A stretch of 28,240 nucleotides of DNA from Candidatus Zixiibacteriota bacterium (GTDB taxonomy: Bacteria; Zixibacteria; MSB-5A5; GN15; FEB-12): assembly GCA_016213305.1 (NCBI GenBank), contig JACRAV010000403.1, forward strand, positions 1-28,240, in the 5' to 3' direction. Both the position numbers and the translations under genes were made by a program. The number at the start of each line of letters is the position of its first letter. Within the stretch, counting starts at the first letter, position 1. Below, one piece after another: positions 13,018 to 23,873 of this stretch. The notes beneath the pieces were generated by a model. It worked only from the letters and a program-made list of their open reading frames with translations. It was not told the DNA's origin and searched no databases.

Positions 13018-13731
13018 TCAATTCAGGCGAAACACCACCGGATAGGTGACCCAAACCGCTATCGGATGACCGTTCTGGATGGCCGGACGGTAGCGGCACA
13101 ATCTCGCGGAGTTGACTGCCGCGATATCGAGGCACTCCAGACCCGACGACACCAAAACCACGACCTTTCGCACTCCTCCCTCTTTGTCCACCAGCACCTG
13201 AAGCGTGACCCGCCCCTCAAGCCCGGCTCGGATCGCCTGGGGCGGGTAGTCCGGTTTGACTTCGCGAATCATTACCGGAAGTGAATCGCACGGGACAAAC
13301 ACGGTGGGATCGAGAAGCAACTCCGTTTGCCCGGGATCGACCGAAAGTGATGAATCACCGATGCCGATCGAGCTATCGAGGCCGGATCCAATAGCGCGTT
13401 CCTCCCGGGTCGGAATCGGATCAGTCTCGGGGGAGTCGTCAACAGGAACCGGAATGATGGCGTGATCAACGGGTGGTTTGGTATGACCGCCGGGTTGGGG
13501 GGTCGGCGGTATGATCCTGGGCGGAGGAGGGATTTCGACACGGCTCTCATGGCGAGGTTGCAACGGCGAGATTACGACGGTCTGGCCTTTCGGAATGACA
13601 CTCCATACCGCAAGCCCCAGCCCGATCAAGATGAGAACCAGCATCTGGGCCATCAAGAGGTTTGCCTGATACCGGGCTTTCAACTCATAGGCGCCGTATC
13701 GGTAGTACAGGGTGGAGTTTGATCCGTTCAT
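13018..13731 (-). CDS. tonB: Energy transducer TonB (second paralog)
   Basis: N-terminal YGAYELK motif, one TM, Pro-rich linker, TonB-C (KPDYP…EGRVTLQVLVDKEG…YRPAIQNGHPI). GGAGG SD. Confidence 0.88.
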   Translation of the reverse strand: MNGSNSTLYYRYGAYELKARYQANLLMAQMLVLILIGLGLAVWSVIPKGQTVVISPLQPRHESRVEIPPPPRIIPPTPQPGGHTKPPVDHAIIPVPVDDSPETDPIPTREERAIGSGLDSSIGIGDSSLSVDPGQTELLLDPTVFVPCDSLPVMIREVKPDYPPQAIRAGLEGRVTLQVLVDKEGGVRKVVVLVSSGLECLDIAAVNSARLCRYRPAIQNGHPIAVWVTYPVVFRLN

Positions 13732-13860
13732 CTTTCATTCCTCCTTCGAGAATACAGTCCGAAAGCGAAATGCTTCCGTGGGCCTTCAGTATTTTGACGG
13801 ATGGAGTGAGCGATTTGTTTAGGAAATAAGATAGCCCGCGCGCGGCGCTCGCGCCCCACG

Positions 13861-13897
13861 AAAATAACAAACCCCCTCGCGTTTGGCGAGAGAGGGT
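13861..13897 (-). terminator. Probable terminator between the two tonB genes
   Basis: Minus strand CTCTCTCGC-caaac-GCGAGGGGG (with G-U pairs) followed by tttgttatttt. Confidence 0.6.
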
Positions 13898-13924
13898 CTG
13901 CGTTACATTTATCGGATCAGCGGG

Positions 13925-14659
13925 TCAACCGCCGGCGTTAAGATTGAACCGACAGGGGTAGGTCACCCAGCAAGCCACCGGTCTTCCATTCTGAATAGCG
14001 GGTTTGTACTTGCAGAGCGGCGCGGCCTTGACGGCGGCGTCATCAAGCGACGGTGTGCCGGATGACTTGGCCAGTTTGGCATCGCGAACATTACCGTCCT
14101 TGTCCACCAGAGCCATCACCCACACGGTTCCTTCAATACCCGCTTGCTTCGCCAGCCGGGGATATTCCGGCTTAACCTCTTTGATCATCTCGGGCTGGAC
14201 TTCGACCGCCACAAATTCGCCGGCGGCCGGAAGGTACTCGTCCTCCTTGATGTCGACCTTGATATCTCCCCCGTCGCCGGCCGAGATATCGGGCGGCACG
14301 ATATCAGCCAGTTCTTCGCGGGTGGCCAGCACGACATCGTCGTTGGGAGCATCTTCATCAGCCACGGGTGTCGGGATACCGACTTTGGGCACGGCCACGT
14401 TCGGCTGGGTCACTTTGACTTGCGGCGGTTTCTGGACAATAGTCGGCGGCGGGCCAAGCTCGGCAATCGTCTTGATGACCGTGGGGGCCATGAAGACCTC
14501 CTCCGATCCCTTGATCAACTGAACGATCCAGGCCGTCAGCAGAACAACCACGACCAGCGACACGGCCAGACCGGTCGCGGTGGCGAAGTTCTTCTGATAC
14601 TTTTCCTTTAGCTCATAGGCGCCGTACGGCGTATATGTCGCATTGTTGGGACCAATCAT
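13925..14659 (-). CDS. tonB: Energy transducer TonB
   Basis: YGAYELK, TM, ELGPPP Pro-rich linker, TonB-C (KPEYP…EGTVWV…YKPAIQNGRPV); starts 2 nt after the exbD stop. Confidence 0.9.
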   Translation of the reverse strand: MIGPNNATYTPYGAYELKEKYQKNFATATGLAVSLVVVVLLTAWIVQLIKGSEEVFMAPTVIKTIAELGPPPTIVQKPPQVKVTQPNVAVPKVGIPTPVADEDAPNDDVVLATREELADIVPPDISAGDGGDIKVDIKEDEYLPAAGEFVAVEVQPEMIKEVKPEYPRLAKQAGIEGTVWVMALVDKDGNVRDAKLAKSSGTPSLDDAAVKAAPLCKYKPAIQNGRPVACWVTYPCRFNLNAGG

Positions 14660-14661
14660 AA

Positions 14662-15312
14662 TTACAACTGTCCTTTCGACCGGGCCAGGGCCTCCGCTTC
14701 GGCCATAATCTTGTCATCCCGGTCATCCCAGTCGCCGACCGCGTACCGGTAGGAGAATTTCTGATCTTTCGGAATGTCGTCTATCTTCGCGAGATTCAGT
14801 TGTTTTCTGGTGTACTCGTTCCAGGCGCGCTCGATGACGTCGATCTCGTCGAGGATATTCACCATGTCGGAGTACATGGCATCTTTGTGAATGAGGATGA
14901 GGGTGTTCAACTTGGGATTCTCGCGGTTCAGGCCGGTGAGCATATGCTGAACGCTGTCCGGATTGTAAGCATATTCGACACTATCGGGTTTGTTCTTGGA
15001 ACTGGGGATCAGATTGGGCATGTTGTCGGACCCGATCTGTCCGGTGTGCCACCAGAAGCGGCCCTTGGCGTCGACATGAATCGTGAGCACATTTTTCGCG
15101 GCGATGTCGATTTTGACGTCATCGTCCGGTGGGAGGTTGATCTCCATGGCCTGCGGCATGGCGAACACGGTGGTCACCATGTAGAAAATCAAAAGCAGAA
15201 AGGCGATATCCACCATCGGGGTCATGTCGATGCGCACCCCGACCCGCCGTTTGGGACGTCTCAGTCCTTTCTTATGGCCTTTTGCCGCGCGTTCTACTAC
15301 ATCGCCTGCCAT
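14662..15312 (-). CDS. exbD: Biopolymer transporter ExbD/TolR (long form)
   Basis: IDMTPMVDIAFLLLIFYMVTT with the conserved TM Asp; IHKDAMYSDMVNILDEI. Confidence 0.9.
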   Translation of the reverse strand: MAGDVVERAAKGHKKGLRRPKRRVGVRIDMTPMVDIAFLLLIFYMVTTVFAMPQAMEINLPPDDDVKIDIAAKNVLTIHVDAKGRFWWHTGQIGSDNMPNLIPSSKNKPDSVEYAYNPDSVQHMLTGLNRENPKLNTLILIHKDAMYSDMVNILDEIDVIERAWNEYTRKQLNLAKIDDIPKDQKFSYRYAVGDWDDRDDKIMAEAEALARSKGQL

Positions 15313-15368
15313 CTATACTCACTCTCCTCTGCGCCCGCCGGACTGGCCGGACGGACGGATCAAATGTC

Positions 15369-15848
15369 TTATCCCTTACCCGATTCGCGTTCCGGATCGG
15401 TAATGATCAGGAAGCGTTCGAGGTGGTTCTCCTGCATTTTCTTCATCACGGTCTGCATGACGCCGAACGTGGCGCGACCATCGGCTTTCACCACCACCAG
15501 CGCCTTGATATTCTTGGCGCGGGCGCGGAGGATTTCCGAGGCCACGTTGTACTGGTCGCAGACGCGCACCCGGCGGCCGGTGGTCTCGACATCCTGGCCG
15601 TCGATATTCACTCTCACCTTCTCCACGTAGTCGACATACAGCGAGTCGAACTTGGTCACCGTGATACTGATGATGTCCTTGTCCGGCAGTTCGATCTGCG
15701 AGTGCGACTGGGGCAGTTCCACCGCCCGGGCTTCCGGTGGTTTGAACTGGGTGGTCGACATATAGAATATGAGCAACAGAAAGGCGACATCGACCATCGG
15801 AGTCATGTCGATCCGGATGGAGACCCGCCGTTTCTTCTTGATACCCAT
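15369..15848 (-). CDS. exbD: Biopolymer transporter ExbD/TolR
   Basis: IDMTPMVDVAFLLLIFYM; VVKADGRATFGVMQTVM. Confidence 0.92.
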   Translation of the reverse strand: MGIKKKRRVSIRIDMTPMVDVAFLLLIFYMSTTQFKPPEARAVELPQSHSQIELPDKDIISITVTKFDSLYVDYVEKVRVNIDGQDVETTGRRVRVCDQYNVASEILRARAKNIKALVVVKADGRATFGVMQTVMKKMQENHLERFLIITDPERESGKG

Positions 15849-15851
15849 CGC

Positions 15852-16610
15852 TTACTTTCCTTCTTTCGCCTTCAAAATCTGCAGAACCTCGAAGGTGGCT
15901 TCGTCGGTCGTGTAGTTGAAGGAGTCTACCTTATTAACAAAGAAATTGTAGAAAAAGATTCCGAGAATACCCGACAGAAGGCCGCCGGCGGTATTAATGA
16001 GCGCCTCGGAGATACCGACCGCCAATTGCTGGGCGTCGATGACGCCGCCCTCGACGTTACCGGTAGCCGCAAACGCGCGGATCATACCAACGGTGGTGCC
16101 CAAAAGTCCGATCATAGTGGCGATCGACGCAATGGTTGACATGGCGATCAGGTTGCGCTCAAGAAGCGGTCCCTCAAGGGCGTTGGCTTCTTCGATGGCG
16201 GCCTGGGTCAGCTGGATGCGCTTTTCGGAGTCGATCCCCCGGTCGGCGCGGGCTTCGCGATACCGCTCGATACCGGCCCTCAGGACGTTGGCGGTGGTGC
16301 CGCGCTGTTTGTCACAGGCCGCGACTGCGCCGTCGAAATCGTCGTTCTGAAGCATGGTGATCAGCTTCTTGAAGAAGATCTGAACGGAGCTTTTGCCCTT
16401 GGCGACGCGATAGAGCGACAGATACCGCTCGACCACGAACACGATGAGCATGAGGAATACCATGATAAGGATAATGACCAGCGGGCCACCCTTGTAGATG
16501 GAGTGGACGATCGGATTCTGTGAGGTTTTGAACACCCCATAAAACATGAAGAACCCGACAGCCAACGCGATCAGGGCGTTGAGCGTGACGAACAAGGTTT
16601 GTTTAACCAC
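15852..16610 (-). CDS. exbB: MotA/TolQ/ExbB proton channel protein
   Basis: GLLGTTVGMIRAF and GISEALINTAGGL with the conserved Thr residues; GTG start with GGAGG SD. Confidence 0.92.
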   Translation of the reverse strand: MVKQTLFVTLNALIALAVGFFMFYGVFKTSQNPIVHSIYKGGPLVIILIMVFLMLIVFVVERYLSLYRVAKGKSSVQIFFKKLITMLQNDDFDGAVAACDKQRGTTANVLRAGIERYREARADRGIDSEKRIQLTQAAIEEANALEGPLLERNLIAMSTIASIATMIGLLGTTVGMIRAFAATGNVEGGVIDAQQLAVGISEALINTAGGLLSGILGIFFYNFFVNKVDSFNYTTDEATFEVLQILKAKEGK

Positions 16611-16638: not shown

Positions 16639-17469
16639 TTAGATTTCAATACCTTTCAAGGCGAGCATGGTCGAGCCGGCCATCGCGATGTAGAATCCCC
16701 AGGTCAGGGAGCCAAGATAGGCGCCGGGGCCGTAGCTGGCGCCCAAACTTGAGAATGTCGCCGGGGCGTCAAAGCCATAGCTTCCGCCGAGGAACGACAA
16801 AAGCAGACCGGCCGCAAAGGCCCCGAGCGGAATCCAGTTATATATGAGCCGTTTCTTGAGAACCAGCGCCTGCTGGTCGGCATCGCCCTTCACAAAATAC
16901 ATTTCATATAACGTCATGGCCGGAAGCACCAGACAACTGATGGTGATGGCCAGAAACAGCAACGCCGTGACTAATAGCGAAAAACCGGACGAGAAGATGG
17001 CCCCGCCAGCGGTGGCGAGTGCGATCAACCCCTCCACGCCCAGTTTGGTGGTCGTGGTTCGGTCCATCTTGCGCTGAATCTTGGTCATAGTGATGACTTC
17101 TTCATTGGCCGATTCCCCCGCAACCGTCTGGGTCGAGCCGCCGGAAGCGGAAGTCTGGCCCGTGCCTTTGGCCGGCACTTCGTGGTAAATCGAATACCAC
17201 GGCATGAACAGGGCGATGATCACGAGCGCGGCAACAACCGTCATAATAAGACGTTCGCCGCGCGAGACACGCTCTCCCAGGAGCGTACATTTGTCGCGGA
17301 CAATCTGGCCGCGGGAGCGTCGCGCCTTGGCCTGATCAACATACTTCTGTTTCTCGGCCTCCGAGGTGAACAGGTCTCCCGGTTTGCCGGGGAACACCTC
17401 AAAGCCGATATAGCGAAACCGCTGGTCTTCGCTGATCCGCTTGATATCGTCGTTTGCTTTCTGGGCCAT
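16639..17469 (-). CDS. Hypothetical polytopic membrane protein
   Basis: 276 aa; charged N-terminal ~70 aa, then about four hydrophobic segments; sits 28-30 nt from both neighbours in the same orientation. Confidence 0.75.
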   Translation of the reverse strand: MAQKANDDIKRISEDQRFRYIGFEVFPGKPGDLFTSEAEKQKYVDQAKARRSRGQIVRDKCTLLGERVSRGERLIMTVVAALVIIALFMPWYSIYHEVPAKGTGQTSASGGSTQTVAGESANEEVITMTKIQRKMDRTTTTKLGVEGLIALATAGGAIFSSGFSLLVTALLFLAITISCLVLPAMTLYEMYFVKGDADQQALVLKKRLIYNWIPLGAFAAGLLLSFLGGSYGFDAPATFSSLGASYGPGAYLGSLTWGFYIAMAGSTMLALKGIEI

Positions 17470-17499: not shown

Positions 17500-19428
17500 C
17501 TAAAATTCAAATCTGGTTTCGTCAAACCCTTTTTTGAAATCGGGATTTTTTGGCTCACATTTCATACCCTTGGCATACCATTCGTTGGCCGCCTTGAAAT
17601 CGGCTTTCGAAGCGGTCTTGTTGCCGGCGTTGGCGACGGCCCGAAGGTGGTAGCTCTGCGCAATCCAGAGGATCAGAGTCGCATCCTTGCAGGACCCTTC
17701 CTTGGCGACGCAGTCGTAGGCGTCGGTGAAATAACCGAGCGCTTTGGTATAGTTTTTCTGGCAAAGATTGTCGCCGAAATAGGCGAATACGAGCGAGCGC
17801 TTGGCGATACAGTTCTTCGGTTCGACAATCAGAAGCTTCTCGAAGGTGGCCACCCCTTCGGTGCACTTGCTCAAGTTAAAGAGGTATATGCTTCCCAGTC
17901 GCAACAATACGCCGGCCTCGGTGGGTTGAAAATCGAGGTACTTTTCCAGATAGCCGGCGGCAACTTCATAATAGTTTCGGTCGGTGTTGACGGGGATGGC
18001 CGCCGCCGAATCGGTCGCTGGTGCGGAACCGCCGTCGTCGAACAGATTGAGGTCGTCGCCGGACTCTTTGTTGCCGGCCATTTTCAGGGCGCAATACCCG
18101 CCGTTCTTATAGACACTGGCCGAGGCCGAATCAACGCCGGCGGCGATTCGCTTTTCGTAATACTCGAGCGCCTGGGAATAACTCCCCAGATTGTGATAGG
18201 CCAGGGCAACGTTGAGCAGAACGCGTTTCTGCTGGGGATTGATTTCGAGAGACTTCTGGTAGTAGTTGACGGCGGCTGTAAAGTCGGTCGGCTTCTTGTA
18301 GAAGGCGCAGTCGCCGAGCAGTTGATAGGTTTCGTCGGCCGACGCGGTGCTGACAAAGTCGGATGACTGCTCGGACAGCCATTGCAGATGTTTGTTGAGC
18401 ATGCTGTCGGCGCGGTCGTACTGCTTGGTCCCCCAGAGCGCCTTGCCGTAATAGAAGTAGATGTCGCGCGGCTCGTAGTGAATGACATTCAGCACGGTGT
18501 CGAAGTAGGCCACGGCGTCTTCAAAGACATACAGATTGACCAGCGACATGCCGACCTCGAAGAAGGCGCGGACATGGGCGGAGTCGGGGGCGGCTTTGGT
18601 CAGATCAAAATACCGTTTGTAGGAACCGATAGTTTCTTTGAATCGGGCGGCGCGTTCGTCGCGGGTCTTGGAGGAAAGCCCGGCTTTGAAATAGATGCCG
18701 CCGGCTCGCATCCAGGCAGGACCGTAGGTGCTGTCCTTTTTGAGTACGACCGCCAGCTTCTCGATCGCGCAATTATACTCTTTCATGTCGAGGCAGGCCT
18801 CGGCCCAATGGTAGTACACTTCCGAGGAAGCCGTGTCCAGTTTCACCGCCCGCTCGTAGTTGCCGGCCGCCAGCGAGGGTATCCCCTGCTTGAGATTGGC
18901 GTCGCCCAGATTGATGTAGTATTCGGCTTTGGTGGAATCGTCGACAATGGCCTGTCGGAAGGCCTTATCGGCCTCGGCGTACGATTTCCGGGCCATCATG
19001 ACCAGTCCGAGACCGTTCTCAAACATGGCCCGCGCATCACGACCTTTCTTGATGCCCGATTCGAACACTTTCTGGGCGGAATCGAGTTTGTTCTGGCGCA
19101 GATAACTAAGTCCTAAACCGCACAGGGATTCCCAGTGGCGCGACTTTTTGTCGAGGGCCAGCTGGTATTGTTTCGCGGCGTCCTGAAAATTCCCCCGGGC
19201 AAAGTAGATCTCGCCCAGCGTGTAGTAGTTCAGATGGAAGGCCTTATCGACTTCGATTTCCTTGACAAGGAGATCGATGGCGCGGACCGTGTCGCCGCTC
19301 TTGAGAGCGGTTTCGATCACGGGCTTCAGCCCTTGGGCGCTCACCACAGGAGCGGCCAGAGTCGCCACCGTTACCAACAGACACGCCAGTGCGGCGTGAC
19401 CAACGAAGTGCATTCTCAAATTACTCAC
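17500..19428 (-). CDS. Secreted tetratricopeptide repeat protein
   Basis: Signal peptide (…APVVSA/QG) and many TPR-like helical repeats (e.g. YYINLGDANLKQGIPSLAAGNYERAV). Start taken as GTG 19428 (purine-rich SD-like sequence, GTGA overlap); ATG 19413 is the alternative. Confidence 0.88.
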   Translation of the reverse strand: MSNLRMHFVGHAALACLLVTVATLAAPVVSAQGLKPVIETALKSGDTVRAIDLLVKEIEVDKAFHLNYYTLGEIYFARGNFQDAAKQYQLALDKKSRHWESLCGLGLSYLRQNKLDSAQKVFESGIKKGRDARAMFENGLGLVMMARKSYAEADKAFRQAIVDDSTKAEYYINLGDANLKQGIPSLAAGNYERAVKLDTASSEVYYHWAEACLDMKEYNCAIEKLAVVLKKDSTYGPAWMRAGGIYFKAGLSSKTRDERAARFKETIGSYKRYFDLTKAAPDSAHVRAFFEVGMSLVNLYVFEDAVAYFDTVLNVIHYEPRDIYFYYGKALWGTKQYDRADSMLNKHLQWLSEQSSDFVSTASADETYQLLGDCAFYKKPTDFTAAVNYYQKSLEINPQQKRVLLNVALAYHNLGSYSQALEYYEKRIAAGVDSASASVYKNGGYCALKMAGNKESGDDLNLFDDGGSAPATDSAAAIPVNTDRNYYEVAAGYLEKYLDFQPTEAGVLLRLGSIYLFNLSKCTEGVATFEKLLIVEPKNCIAKRSLVFAYFGDNLCQKNYTKALGYFTDAYDCVAKEGSCKDATLILWIAQSYHLRAVANAGNKTASKADFKAANEWYAKGMKCEPKNPDFKKGFDETRFEF

Positions 19429-19703
19429 CCATCTTCCCTTACACAGAATGTTGAAAATACGATCTCTCCAACGAGTGTCAAGTCCAATTTTCTCTTGGCC
19501 TTGCGGACCAGAGATCGGCATGGCGCGGCGACCAGTTGCCAGACGCCAAGGGCGCGCCAGATGGCGAAGCAGGAGGCCGATGTAAAGGCCAGAAAGCGGG
19601 CATCGGACGTCAGGACATCGTCGAATGTGCTATCCACATAGATCACGGTAACCTCCAGAATCAGCGCCGCAACGAGATCAAGTACTCGTGTAATCAGGGC
19701 CAT
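19425..19703 (-). CDS. Candidate small two-TM membrane protein (92 aa)
   Basis: AAAGGA SD, MALITRVLDLVAALILEVTVIY…, a second hydrophobic segment, then RKAKRK; the stop overlaps the TPR GTG. Confidence 0.4.
   Translation of the reverse strand: MALITRVLDLVAALILEVTVIYVDSTFDDVLTSDARFLAFTSASCFAIWRALGVWQLVAAPCRSLVRKAKRKLDLTLVGEIVFSTFCVREDG
19454..19481 (-). promoter_or_regulatory. Putative promoter of the TPR-exbBDD-tonB operon
   Basis: TTGACA-N16-TATTTT. Confidence 0.5.
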
Positions 19704-20000
19704 GCTGTTCTGTCCTTTATACATTGCTACCGTCCAGTTCTTCCAGGCATTCTCCAACGGATCCTGCCCGCGACAGGTGGATTCTTCACTATGCTCACTT
19801 GATGTCAACCGACGTGCCAAGGATGGAGGCGCAATTGGTCGCGTGTAGCGTAATGCGCTGTACCACAGCAACATACAGGTAGCGGCAAGGGGTTGGGAGC
19901 GACGATTGAGGATTAAGGAATCTATAAAGAGGGCGCAGGATTTGCGCTGAGCATCGCCCGGAGAATTGAGTGCGACAGCAACATATTGCCACACATTGGA

Positions 20001-21185
20001 TTAGCGGAACGGCTTAGAGCCGGACCGGCGCAACCAATCCAGGTAGACTCGTACGTTTCCACTACCTGCGAAATCGAAGTACATGAGTCCGGAAAAGGCG
20101 ACGCGCCGCCCGTGGAAGTCTGTTGCCGGATGAAATCTCATCTCGGAAATGGCCTCCCGGCAGATCGACGCGACGATGGAACTCCTGTTGCTCATACGAG
20201 TCGGCCACGCCTGACCGGAAGTATCAAAGGTGCACCAGACACTGACCGGGCCGTAAGGCTTCCCAGTAGCCCGGTCAATCCCAACCGAATCAGCGTTCAC
20301 GGACGCGGGTATCGGGGGAATCATGACGCCCTCGGTATCGATCACCAGCCGGATAAGGAACTGCTCGACGGTACCGGCGGTGTCCTTTCCAGGCAATCCA
20401 ATAGGTCGGGTCGGGTAGCGGGCACGGGGGTGATAGATCACGACGGCATAGACGGTTGACGCAGTAAGTGTTTCGCCGACCCGCGCTGGGGTGTAGTCCG
20501 CCCAGTTGAAAGCCGAGGCGATTTGATCGGTAAACCCGACCATGGTAGTGCGCACCGTTTCGACCTGACCGGGTTTTCCGTCGGCGTTGACGTCAATTTT
20601 CAACAGCGCGTAAGGCAGGTCGGTCAGCGAGTCTCTTTTAGAGCAGGTGAAGAAGACGGGAGCCAGACGATTGAGGAGAGGGGACGAGACACTATTGGCC
20701 TGCAGACCCGCCGCATAAAGCCGGGGGTCGCCGAACCGTCCGCTATCGGTGACCGGTGTGGAAAGGCGCGCACGAACTGACCCGGCGAAAAGTGCCAGTT
20801 CGGCGGGTATGACCTGCGCCACCGCTTCTGAATCGCGCTTTCCCGGCACAAACTCCACCTTCCTCAGAATGGAATCTAGGAGGCGAATCAGGATCGAATC
20901 CTCCGCGAGTTGCCCGGTGACTGAAGTCACCGAGCCGTCGGCGGAAACGTGAAAGTTAATGGGTACCAGCAGATCGAATCGAGCGTAAGGGTTTACCGTC
21001 CTCGGCACAACCACCAGCGTCGATTTGGGATAGGCAAGCGCCACGCCCAAAGTCGCCGGTCGTTGCCGTTCCTCCGCCCCAAGCGCCACACCAGCGACAA
21101 TCAGAAGCCAGAGCAGGCAGGCGGACACTCCAGCGATGGTGGACGGACGCCGGCCTGCTGAATCTGTTGATCGTGTCATTGTCAC
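20001..21185 (-). CDS. Exported protein with three tandem TonB C-terminal-like domains
   Basis: Hydrophobic N-terminus (…VALG/AEE) and three ~120-aa repeats with the TonB-C pattern h-x-h-x-[DA]-x-x-G…(F/Y)xP. Start GTG 21185 or ATG 21179. Confidence 0.65.
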   Translation of the reverse strand: MTMTRSTDSAGRRPSTIAGVSACLLWLLIVAGVALGAEERQRPATLGVALAYPKSTLVVVPRTVNPYARFDLLVPINFHVSADGSVTSVTGQLAEDSILIRLLDSILRKVEFVPGKRDSEAVAQVIPAELALFAGSVRARLSTPVTDSGRFGDPRLYAAGLQANSVSSPLLNRLAPVFFTCSKRDSLTDLPYALLKIDVNADGKPGQVETVRTTMVGFTDQIASAFNWADYTPARVGETLTASTVYAVVIYHPRARYPTRPIGLPGKDTAGTVEQFLIRLVIDTEGVMIPPIPASVNADSVGIDRATGKPYGPVSVWCTFDTSGQAWPTRMSNRSSIVASICREAISEMRFHPATDFHGRRVAFSGLMYFDFAGSGNVRVYLDWLRRSGSKPFR

Positions 21186-21233
21186 AAGCTATACTTGGTC
21201 TGCGCCTATAGCAAAGTTTAATCCCTGTGGTAA
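21167..21233. promoter_or_regulatory. Overlapping divergent promoters
   Basis: Plus strand TTGATC-N17-TATACT (21167-21195); minus strand TTACCA-N17-TATAGG (21233-21205). Confidence 0.4.
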
Positions 21234-22799: not shown

Positions 22800-23873
22800 C
22801 TAGTTTATGGCCCTGGCCTCATCGTTGGGGCGGTCCCCCGAACAGTCCATCCGCCAGGCGCCGCGAATCGGCATGTTCATCTTGGGCGTGGTGAACCCGC
22901 CTGGAGGAATGCCTATCTCACCCATGACATCACCGACTTCCCCCTGCCCGTTGATCGTAAAGCGACCCTTGAACAGAGCATGTCCCGCGCCGCACATCAT
23001 GCACATGGTCGGATCATCATAAACCCAGGTTCCGAATAGCTCGCCGACTTCGGCGCCCGTCGTATCGGTGTACTTACCGACAAACAGCTGTTTGTTTTCC
23101 TCGGTGGTAAAGAACTTCCCATACACTTTGGGCATATTTACGGGAAGCGGCGGCATGGGCATCATACCCGCCGGAAGCCAGTACCCTTCGAACGGACCAT
23201 TCTGCGCGGTTGAGTCGCGATGCCAGACTCCCAGGATTCCTCCATGCGGACACTGCGGCCGGGGAACCTGACGAGCGAATATTGCCACGCCGTTGTGATC
23301 ATCAACTTTGTAGAGCGCGTTATATCGCACCAGGCCTGAAAGTGGAATTTCCAGCGAAAACGGCGCGGTGCTGAAGGCGAGGCGCGGTTCGACAAGATAG
23401 ACTATCCCCCGCTTCGCGAGGATGACGACGTTGAAGCCGTCAAAATCTCGGAACGTGGTCGAGGCCCAGGCGATGGTCGAGGAATCGGGGCTCGGAAGGA
23501 GCGAATCCTGCCCCTTCTCGAAACAGATGGCACTGCGGACTTTCAGACCGCCGACGGCGCCAAAATTGAGCTTTCCAGACCAGTCGGTCGGGGTGGCGGT
23601 GGAGTCGGTCGCTTTGGCGAAATGGCCCCAGATAAAGGTGGCTACAAAGACATCGAATCTTGTTTCAAACCAAACGACCCCCATATGAAAATCGGGCGAG
23701 GCCTGCGGATTGGTGAACTCTTCGGGACGATTCTGGTCCAGCACCACCTGCAAGTCCTTGGTCACCAGATCCGGCGAAGAATCTGCGACCGCAGGAGCGG
23801 TCGTTTTCTCCCCGGAACACCCAATGATGAGCAGTAACAGCGCTGTCGTCATCAGCAGAACGATTTTCTTCAT
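22800..23873 (-). CDS. Hypothetical lipoprotein
   Basis: MKKIVLLMTTALLLLIIG/C lipobox-like signal; AGGAG SD; no recognisable catalytic motif. Confidence 0.8.
   Translation of the reverse strand: MKKIVLLMTTALLLLIIGCSGEKTTAPAVADSSPDLVTKDLQVVLDQNRPEEFTNPQASPDFHMGVVWFETRFDVFVATFIWGHFAKATDSTATPTDWSGKLNFGAVGGLKVRSAICFEKGQDSLLPSPDSSTIAWASTTFRDFDGFNVVILAKRGIVYLVEPRLAFSTAPFSLEIPLSGLVRYNALYKVDDHNGVAIFARQVPRPQCPHGGILGVWHRDSTAQNGPFEGYWLPAGMMPMPPLPVNMPKVYGKFFTTEENKQLFVGKYTDTTGAEVGELFGTWVYDDPTMCMMCGAGHALFKGRFTINGQGEVGDVMGEIGIPPGGFTTPKMNMPIRGAWRMDCSGDRPNDEARAIN

Follow-up and report, generated by a model that had tools for sequence, protein, structure and literature searches.

The window, by which the whole stretch of analysed DNA is meant, spans positions 1 to 28,240 of the forward strand of contig JACRAV010000403.1 of Candidatus Zixiibacteriota bacterium (GCA_016213305.1), a MAG of Zixibacteria (GN15) with 2.63 Mb in 444 contigs and a completeness of 85%. 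The relatives of its Lon protein place it in Zixibacteria (GN15) as well. Its minus strand carries, besides a Ton operon, the gene for an exported protein without membrane anchor or stalk which is made up of three diverged TonB 'gripping' end domains, an architecture variant of the known TonB_C domain that is confined to an uncultured lineage (Table 1). As residue M3 is a methionine in 97% of the relatives (118-sequence alignment), the true start of this gene is likely the ATG at 21179, two codons past the GTG at 21185.

Table 1. Coordinates of the triple-domain protein, its parts and the adjoining Ton operon within the window.
Feature	Position	Strand	Basis and remarks
Gene of the triple TonB_C-fold protein	20001..21185	-	ORF list, translation; 394 codons from GTG 21185
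Predicted N-terminal Sec signal peptide, residues 3-37	21075..21179	-	n-region RR, hydrophobic core, ALGA/EE; family N-termini
Repeat 1, TonB-CTD fold, residues 49-142	20760..21041	-	VIA, hhalign, family-profile PDB matches
Linker 1, conserved, residues 143-165	20691..20759	-	near-invariant P144; helix 154-163
Repeat 2, TonB-CTD fold, residues 166-254	20424..20690	-	VIA, hhalign
Linker 2, conserved, residues 255-287	20325..20423	-	near-invariant Y257-P258
Repeat 3, TonB-CTD fold, residues 288-386	20028..20324	-	domain-only AF2, VIA, Foldseek, hhalign
Terminator-like hairpin, just past the stop of the triple-domain gene	19933..19947	-	consensus scan, weak
Promoter-like site TTGACA-16-AAGAAT, ahead of the Ton operon	19781..19808	-	consensus scan, weak
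Small ORF, 99 aa, hydrophobic N-terminal half	19425..19724	-	stop 11 nt before the TPR start
Secreted TPR protein, 637 aa	17500..19413	-	Pfam TPR families; signal-like N-terminus
Inner-membrane protein, 276 aa, no family, two hydrophobic segments	16639..17469	-	conserved between TPR gene and exbB class-wide
ExbB, ExbD, ExbD, TonB, TonB genes	13018..16610	-	Pfam MotA_ExbB, ExbD x2, TonB_C x2

The gene had been described as lying upstream of and co-oriented with the Ton operon, and it is indeed located on the same strand approximately 3.4 kb upstream of exbB. The operon follows the order (small ORF)-TPR-membrane protein-ExbB-ExbD-ExbD-TonB(-TonB), and directly upstream of it the triple-domain gene is found in all 15 loci examined, which represent four families. 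Equally syntenic in 15 of 15 loci is the TPR gene, whose mechanically called ORF (17500-19521, minus strand) begins 36 codons too early; because relatives align only from approximately residue 45-65 of this long ORF, the real start is probably the ATG at 19413, which opens a signal-peptide-like N-terminus (MHFVGH). The small ORF shows 42% identity over 85 aa to the same-genus locus L038 and weaker matches to loci L032, L033 and L044, belongs to no Pfam family and is the probable first gene of the Ton operon. The membrane protein encoded ahead of exbB is fused to the TPR protein in genome G133, where both form a single frame of 863 aa (locus L049, 7274-9862, minus strand), which suggests that the two proteins work together with the motor. 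The two TonB paralogues of the window (13018-14659, minus strand) have in common a cytoplasmic N-terminal motif, YGAYELK..YQ.N, ahead of the transmembrane helix, possibly the element by which the TonBs of this lineage contact the motor.

Between the triple-domain gene and the small ORF, the terminator-like hairpin and the promoter-like site suggest separate transcription, so that the gene is probably a transcription unit of its own and the operon is probably read from its own promoter. An Rfam family was not found anywhere in the window, nor a riboswitch in the gap. On its other side the gene is faced by a divergent gene for a Wzx-type flippase, the two starts being approximately 45 nt apart (window 21179-21227). 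A flippase of this type is the other neighbour in 11 of the 15 loci; its orientation varies among the loci or the gene is absent, and in family f4 it is co-oriented and upstream, with a gap of 82 nt in locus L042. As the wider region from an E1 dehydrogenase to a helicase is also syntenic within the order, the adjacency of gene and operon is weak evidence of a functional link.

The preliminary description had proposed three tandem TonB C-terminal-like domains, a proposal with which family conservation, hhalign, AF2 and structure matches all agree. The strings that had been quoted for the three repeats (INFHVSADGSV…VEFVPGKRD, LKIDVNADGKP…ADYTPARVG and VWCTFDTSGQA…MRFHPATDFHG) are all present in the translation, and the anchors G84/G203/G324 and P114/P233/P353 are located where they had been placed, with a period of 119-121 aa. 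A Pfam scan of this protein alone left TonB_C unmatched up to E = 10, TIGR01352 (NCBIfam tonB_Cterm) stayed below threshold with 13.4 bits versus a cut-off of 27.1 (E 0.073, residues 74-90 only), self-BLASTP detected no repeat, BLASTP against the two TonBs of the window gave nothing significant, and a single-protein search of the genome contig collection returned no relatives. Plain self-BLASTP being blind to them, the repeats must be far diverged; with Pfam silent and the NCBIfam signal faint in addition, the claim of repeats is not demonstrable from the single sequence, and the repeats are detectable by profile and structure methods only.

An exhaustive HMMER search (E <= 1e-3) collected 207 cluster representatives, nearly all of them 365-400 aa in length and aligned end to end, of which 118 constitute the family alignment A1. 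The only invariant or near-invariant columns of A1 are M3, G84, F112, P114, P144, G203, Y257, P258, G324, P353, A354, G366, R379 and W384, so that the anchors G84, P114, G203, G324 and P353 are among them. The glycine of the beta1-beta2 turn, G186 in E. coli, is kept in each repeat (G84 in 100%, G203 in 99% and G324 in 98% of the relatives), as is the aromatic-x-Pro loop ahead of beta3 with F112/P114, Y231/P233 and F351/P353/A354. Compared by hhalign, the repeat sub-alignments recognize each other with probabilities of 97.9% (R1-R2), 96.7% (R1-R3) and 89.1% (R2-R3), and they match an alignment of 45 genuine Zixibacteria TonB C-terminal domains with 96.9% (R1), 95.9% (R2) and 92.5% (R3). Pfam TonB_C (PF03544) is matched by 57 of the 118 relatives at E < 0.01 (best E 2.1e-12), the best 10 matches of the family profile to PDB sequences are all TonB chains (E 6e-4 to 2e-2, R1 region), and a language-model feature search likewise reached TonB_C clusters.

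A further hallmark requires separate consideration. In TonB the YP motif is described as the best-conserved feature and as a contact of the TonB box, and its tyrosine interacts with transporters (PMC10350073). Ahead of alpha1, where E. coli TonB has Y163-P164, the PEYP of the TonB alignment meets R1 and R3 at columns that are not conserved; in R2 the alignment ends before reaching it. The near-invariant P53, P144 and Y257-P258 sit farther upstream of each repeat than the aligned PEYP and could be displaced equivalents of the YP motif.

Modelled by AF2 with A1 (mean pLDDT 92.6, pTM 0.87), the protein consists of an N-terminal helix (residues 17-33) and three beta-beta-alpha-beta-beta units, which match the topology alpha1-beta1-beta2-alpha2-beta3(-beta4) of the TonB CTD (PMC7014051). 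All three repeats model as TonB-CTD folds, the outcome on which the preliminary description had made its proposal depend beforehand. By VIA, R1 superimposes on the E. coli TonB CTD 1xx3 with Z 7.2 (rmsd 2.6, 85 of 89 residues) and R2 on the P. aeruginosa TonB CTD 6i97_E with Z 8.0 (rmsd 2.8, 85 of 90 residues). Because the whole-model VIA rows across R3 were weak ATP-grasp fragments (Z ~4), residues 262-394 were modelled alone with alignment A2 of 22 orthologues (AF2 pLDDT 82.8), which gave Z 7.7 on 6i97_E (84 of 90 residues), Z 7.4 on 1xx3 and Foldseek probabilities of 1.00/0.99 versus TonB CTDs; between TonB and an ATP-grasp fragment, this R3-only model decides in favour of TonB. When the whole model is compared with the PDB by Foldseek, complement proteins dominate as spurious multi-domain matches, and TonB CTDs appear at rank 40 and below with probabilities of 0.92-0.99. 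The top ranks of VIA are occupied by the end domains of TonB, FusB and TolA, with 82-85 of the approximately 90 residues of TonB CTDs covered, and although the Z values are middling in absolute terms, whole domains are covered, which is consistent with the sequence profiles. Both linkers are more conserved than the repeats in the family alignment, which, combined with the pTM of the model, suggests one rigid or compact body rather than three independent binding modules.

As to export, the N-terminus had been read as a cleavable signal, a reading supported by the N-termini of the family. The only hydrophobic segment of this protein is a long stretch of approximately 21-23 residues (KD 2.5); the ambiguity is resolved by the relatives, most of which show an n/h/c signal with a short h-region and an AXA site directly before a conserved (E)RP..G motif, while approximately 12 of 116 possess a lipobox (L-x-G-C) and, behind it, a short Pro/Gly tether. 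Apart from M3, there are no conserved columns before R42 among the 118 relatives of A1, and a transmembrane anchor contacting the motor was not encountered in the N-termini of the family, which are cleavable signals or lipoboxes. Also borne out is the absence of a proline-rich stalk, with at most 5 prolines per 30 aa versus 9 and 12 in the two adjacent TonBs. Between the signal peptide and the first domain lie only approximately 10 residues, so there is no linker able to span the periplasm, and the N-terminal motif YGAYELK..YQxN of both neighbouring TonBs is absent from the triple-domain protein. With a cleavable signal, a single hydrophobic segment, a low proline content and no TonB N-terminal motif, the protein is therefore not driven by ExbB-ExbD through a transmembrane helix. 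The mature protein is predicted to be periplasmic and soluble, with a lipid tether in some species.

The family is single-copy in 38 of 41 close genomes and present, again single-copy, in 81 of 83 sampled genomes, which cover four families of one Zixibacteria order. Among 66 genomes from 14 other families of the class none encodes a member at E <= 1e-10; a further family does contain one distant relative with three repeats. In genus g47, which belongs to the same family as the source genome, the triple-domain gene has been lost and the Ton operon kept. The arrangement in g47 genome G118 (locus L051) is E1 dehydrogenase-flippase-(333 nt)-TPR, with the flippase retained and the gene cleanly missing; in g47 genome G148 (locus L045) flippase and triple-domain gene have been lost together and a gap of 740 nt remains. 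Three sister orders keep the Ton operon with nothing TonB_C-like upstream of it. Given this distribution, the gene is an order-specific, dispensable add-on and not a core part of the motor.

Of the known systems, the TonB CTD (PF03544; E. coli 1xx3/2grx/2gsk, P. aeruginosa 6i97) is the one to which each repeat is related at the profile level, by the alpha-beta-beta-alpha-beta(-beta) fold, the glycine of the beta1-beta2 turn and the [FY]-x-P-A...G loop. In contrast to TonB, three such domains are present per chain, without transmembrane anchor, proline-rich linker and N-terminal motor-contact motif, the YP is unconserved at the aligned place, and the protein itself stays below the Pfam and NCBIfam thresholds. 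As with the energy transducer, the gene adjoins the exbB/exbD operon on the same strand, although its transcript is probably separate. The TolA CTD (2x9a, 1tol, 6s3w) belongs to the same fold class (Z 4.5-5.2) and binds its partners, the N-terminus of TolB and the phage protein g3p, by strand addition, but it is a weaker structural match than TonB, and TolA is anchored and energised.

Tandem TonB_C domains with a period of approximately 120 aa are also found in Bacteroidota. B. thetaiotaomicron TonB9 (BT3896) is a protein of 285 aa with TonB_C at 85-161 and 207-284, TonB10 (BT3898) combines a dual TonB_C with an M56 peptidase, and such dual-TonB_C proteins are said to be uncharacterised (PMC10350073, citing Chu et al. 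2007). Compared by description, theirs are two well-conserved domains with YP motifs and strong Pfam scores, accompanied in TonB10 by the M56 peptidase, whereas here three strongly diverged domains follow a cleavable signal. The source genome itself also harbours a fragment with two canonical tandem TonB_C domains (Pfam E 3e-13 and 1e-14) at a contig end (locus L052, G000:C223, 2-586, plus strand), its N-terminus lying off the contig, which resembles the Bacteroidota proteins. The Vibrio TonB2 system with its accessories TtpB, TtpC and TtpD with TPR motifs offers another parallel, namely lineage-specific extras, including a TPR protein, encoded with exbB-exbD-tonB, and demonstrates that Ton motors can need more than the classic three parts (PMC6957404). 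TtpB and TtpD, however, are encoded inside the operon, were shown to be essential (PMC6957404) and have no sequence or fold relation to the triple-domain protein, the gene of which is probably transcribed separately and has been lost in one genus. A description of an exported anchorless triple TonB_C protein was not found in open-access papers and preprints, nor was anything relevant on Zixibacteria combined with TonB, and a survey of TolA/TonB evolution mentions no such triple architecture (PMC12204202).

The reading we favour, at slightly less than an even chance, is that the protein acts in the periplasm, unpowered, as a binding or adaptor component of the envelope system formed by Ton and the TonB-dependent transporters. 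The protein would have originated by triplication of a TonB C-terminal domain, and each domain would capture an exposed strand of a partner by beta-augmentation, as the end domains of TonB and TolA bind partners by adding a strand to a sheet (PMC7014051). Candidate partners are outer-membrane transporters, bound at their TonB boxes, or the two TonB paralogues, bound at their end domains, and the protein might hold, bridge, cluster or mask them; it would not pull, as it is not coupled to ExbB-ExbD. This role is favoured because potential TonB-box partners exist, at least five plug domains of TonB-dependent transporters being encoded in the 85% complete genome, because strand addition is the binding mode of such end domains, and because Ton systems of Vibrio include extra essential accessory proteins, among them a TPR protein (PMC6957404). 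A link to the Ton system is also supported by the adjacency to the operon in 15 of 15 loci, while the flippase moves or is missing, and by the nearly universal single-copy presence in the sampled genomes of the order (81/83). Weighing against it, a TPR-TonB_C fusion does not occur among the 120 homologues of the TPR neighbour listed; the probable separate transcription, the synteny of the wider region, the loss in g47, the operon-only sister orders and the unconserved YP count against this role too.

Binding of TonB boxes in particular, which the preliminary description had put at the centre as the task of a soluble multivalent binder, is plausible and not more, since the gene is probably closed off by a terminator and the operon probably read from a separate promoter, since g47 has deleted the gene and sister orders do without it, and since the YP is unconserved at the aligned positions. 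The proposal of a soluble multivalent TonB-box binder is thereby, and by the suggested rigid body, somewhat weakened. A more specific form, which we regard as unlikely, would be a rigid periplasmic hub that serves the Ton machinery as its own, unpowered third layer, with three domains each holding a TonB box or a TonB end domain. By this hub, one ExbB-ExbD motor could be placed in advance on several outer-membrane transporters, shared among them or gated from them.

Four other explanations were considered. In a role as a Ton-independent periplasmic scaffold, rather unlikely in our estimation, the TonB_C fold would be reused as a generic module for binding proteins or peptidoglycan, in envelope or polysaccharide export for instance, and the adjacency to the operon would be inherited gene order. 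The synteny of the whole region within the order, the flippase as the other neighbour in most loci and its close co-orientation in f4, the probably separate transcription, the loss in g47 without loss of the operon and the poorly kept YP motif would all fit such a scaffold, as would the proposal that the TonB CTD contacts peptidoglycan (PMC7014051). On the other hand, it is the flippase that varies as a neighbour and the Ton operon that does not, and g47 genome G118 retains the flippase with the triple-domain gene gone. Soluble mimics of TonB end domains could alternatively fill TonB boxes as competitive inhibitors or decoys, thereby damping uptake or soaking up TonB-box-bearing bacteriocins and phage proteins. 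C-terminal fragments of TonB expressed in the periplasm of E. coli inhibit TonB-dependent transport, and the protein is built like an anchorless TonB CTD repeated three times; still, a constitutive single-copy core gene of the order sits oddly with the inhibition of nutrient uptake, the aligned positions lack a conserved YP motif, and the window offers no regulator or toxin context, which makes such an activity distinctly improbable.

Less probable again is a sensing role, in which the protein would be the soluble equivalent of the periplasmic TonB_C-type sensor portion found in BlaR/M56-type signalling proteases and would bind a peptide or ligand to sense it rather than to transport it. Fusions of M56 peptidases with one or two TonB_C domains do exist (B. 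theta TonB1, TonB10; PMC10350073), and the family profile weakly matches ORFs of 580-620 aa in related genomes, but this similarity (E ~1e-4) is no better than that to ordinary TonBs, and no M56 peptidase or regulator gene is encoded nearby. The least probable of the explanations considered is a true energy-transducing TonB, whose N-terminal helix would be an uncleaved signal anchor docking into ExbB-ExbD. Such an anchor would suit the long hydrophobic stretch of this particular protein and the helix 17-33 of the AF2 model, but relatives with short h-regions and AXA sites or lipoboxes, the lack of any conserved residue before R42 other than M3, the lack of a linker long enough for the periplasm and the missing N-terminal motif common to the neighbouring TonBs led us to judge it unlikely.

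The usual view of the TonB end domain is confined to its role as the tip of a tether that transmits force. Here the same domain is triplicated, freed from the motor and exported, encoded by a core gene beside the motor operon across an order, and the order-wide retention of a triplicated anchorless family implies a second, force-independent periplasmic job for the TonB end domain. If TonB boxes are bound, the protein would offer both a tool and a precedent, each of natural origin, for the regulation or clustering of TonB-dependent transporters and would help to explain the many multi-TonB_C proteins in Bacteroidota and other phyla; if it acts as a hub, it would represent a previously undescribed kind of natural regulator, one that controls access to TonB boxes in a multivalent way. 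If TonB boxes are not bound, the sequences still define a well-modelled protein family which is largely missed by current domain libraries.

Elsewhere in the window, a predicted lipoprotein of 357 aa (22800-23873, minus strand), assigned to no Pfam or NCBIfam family, carries a lipobox of the form MKK...LLIIGC and shows 49% identity to the same-genus locus L038.
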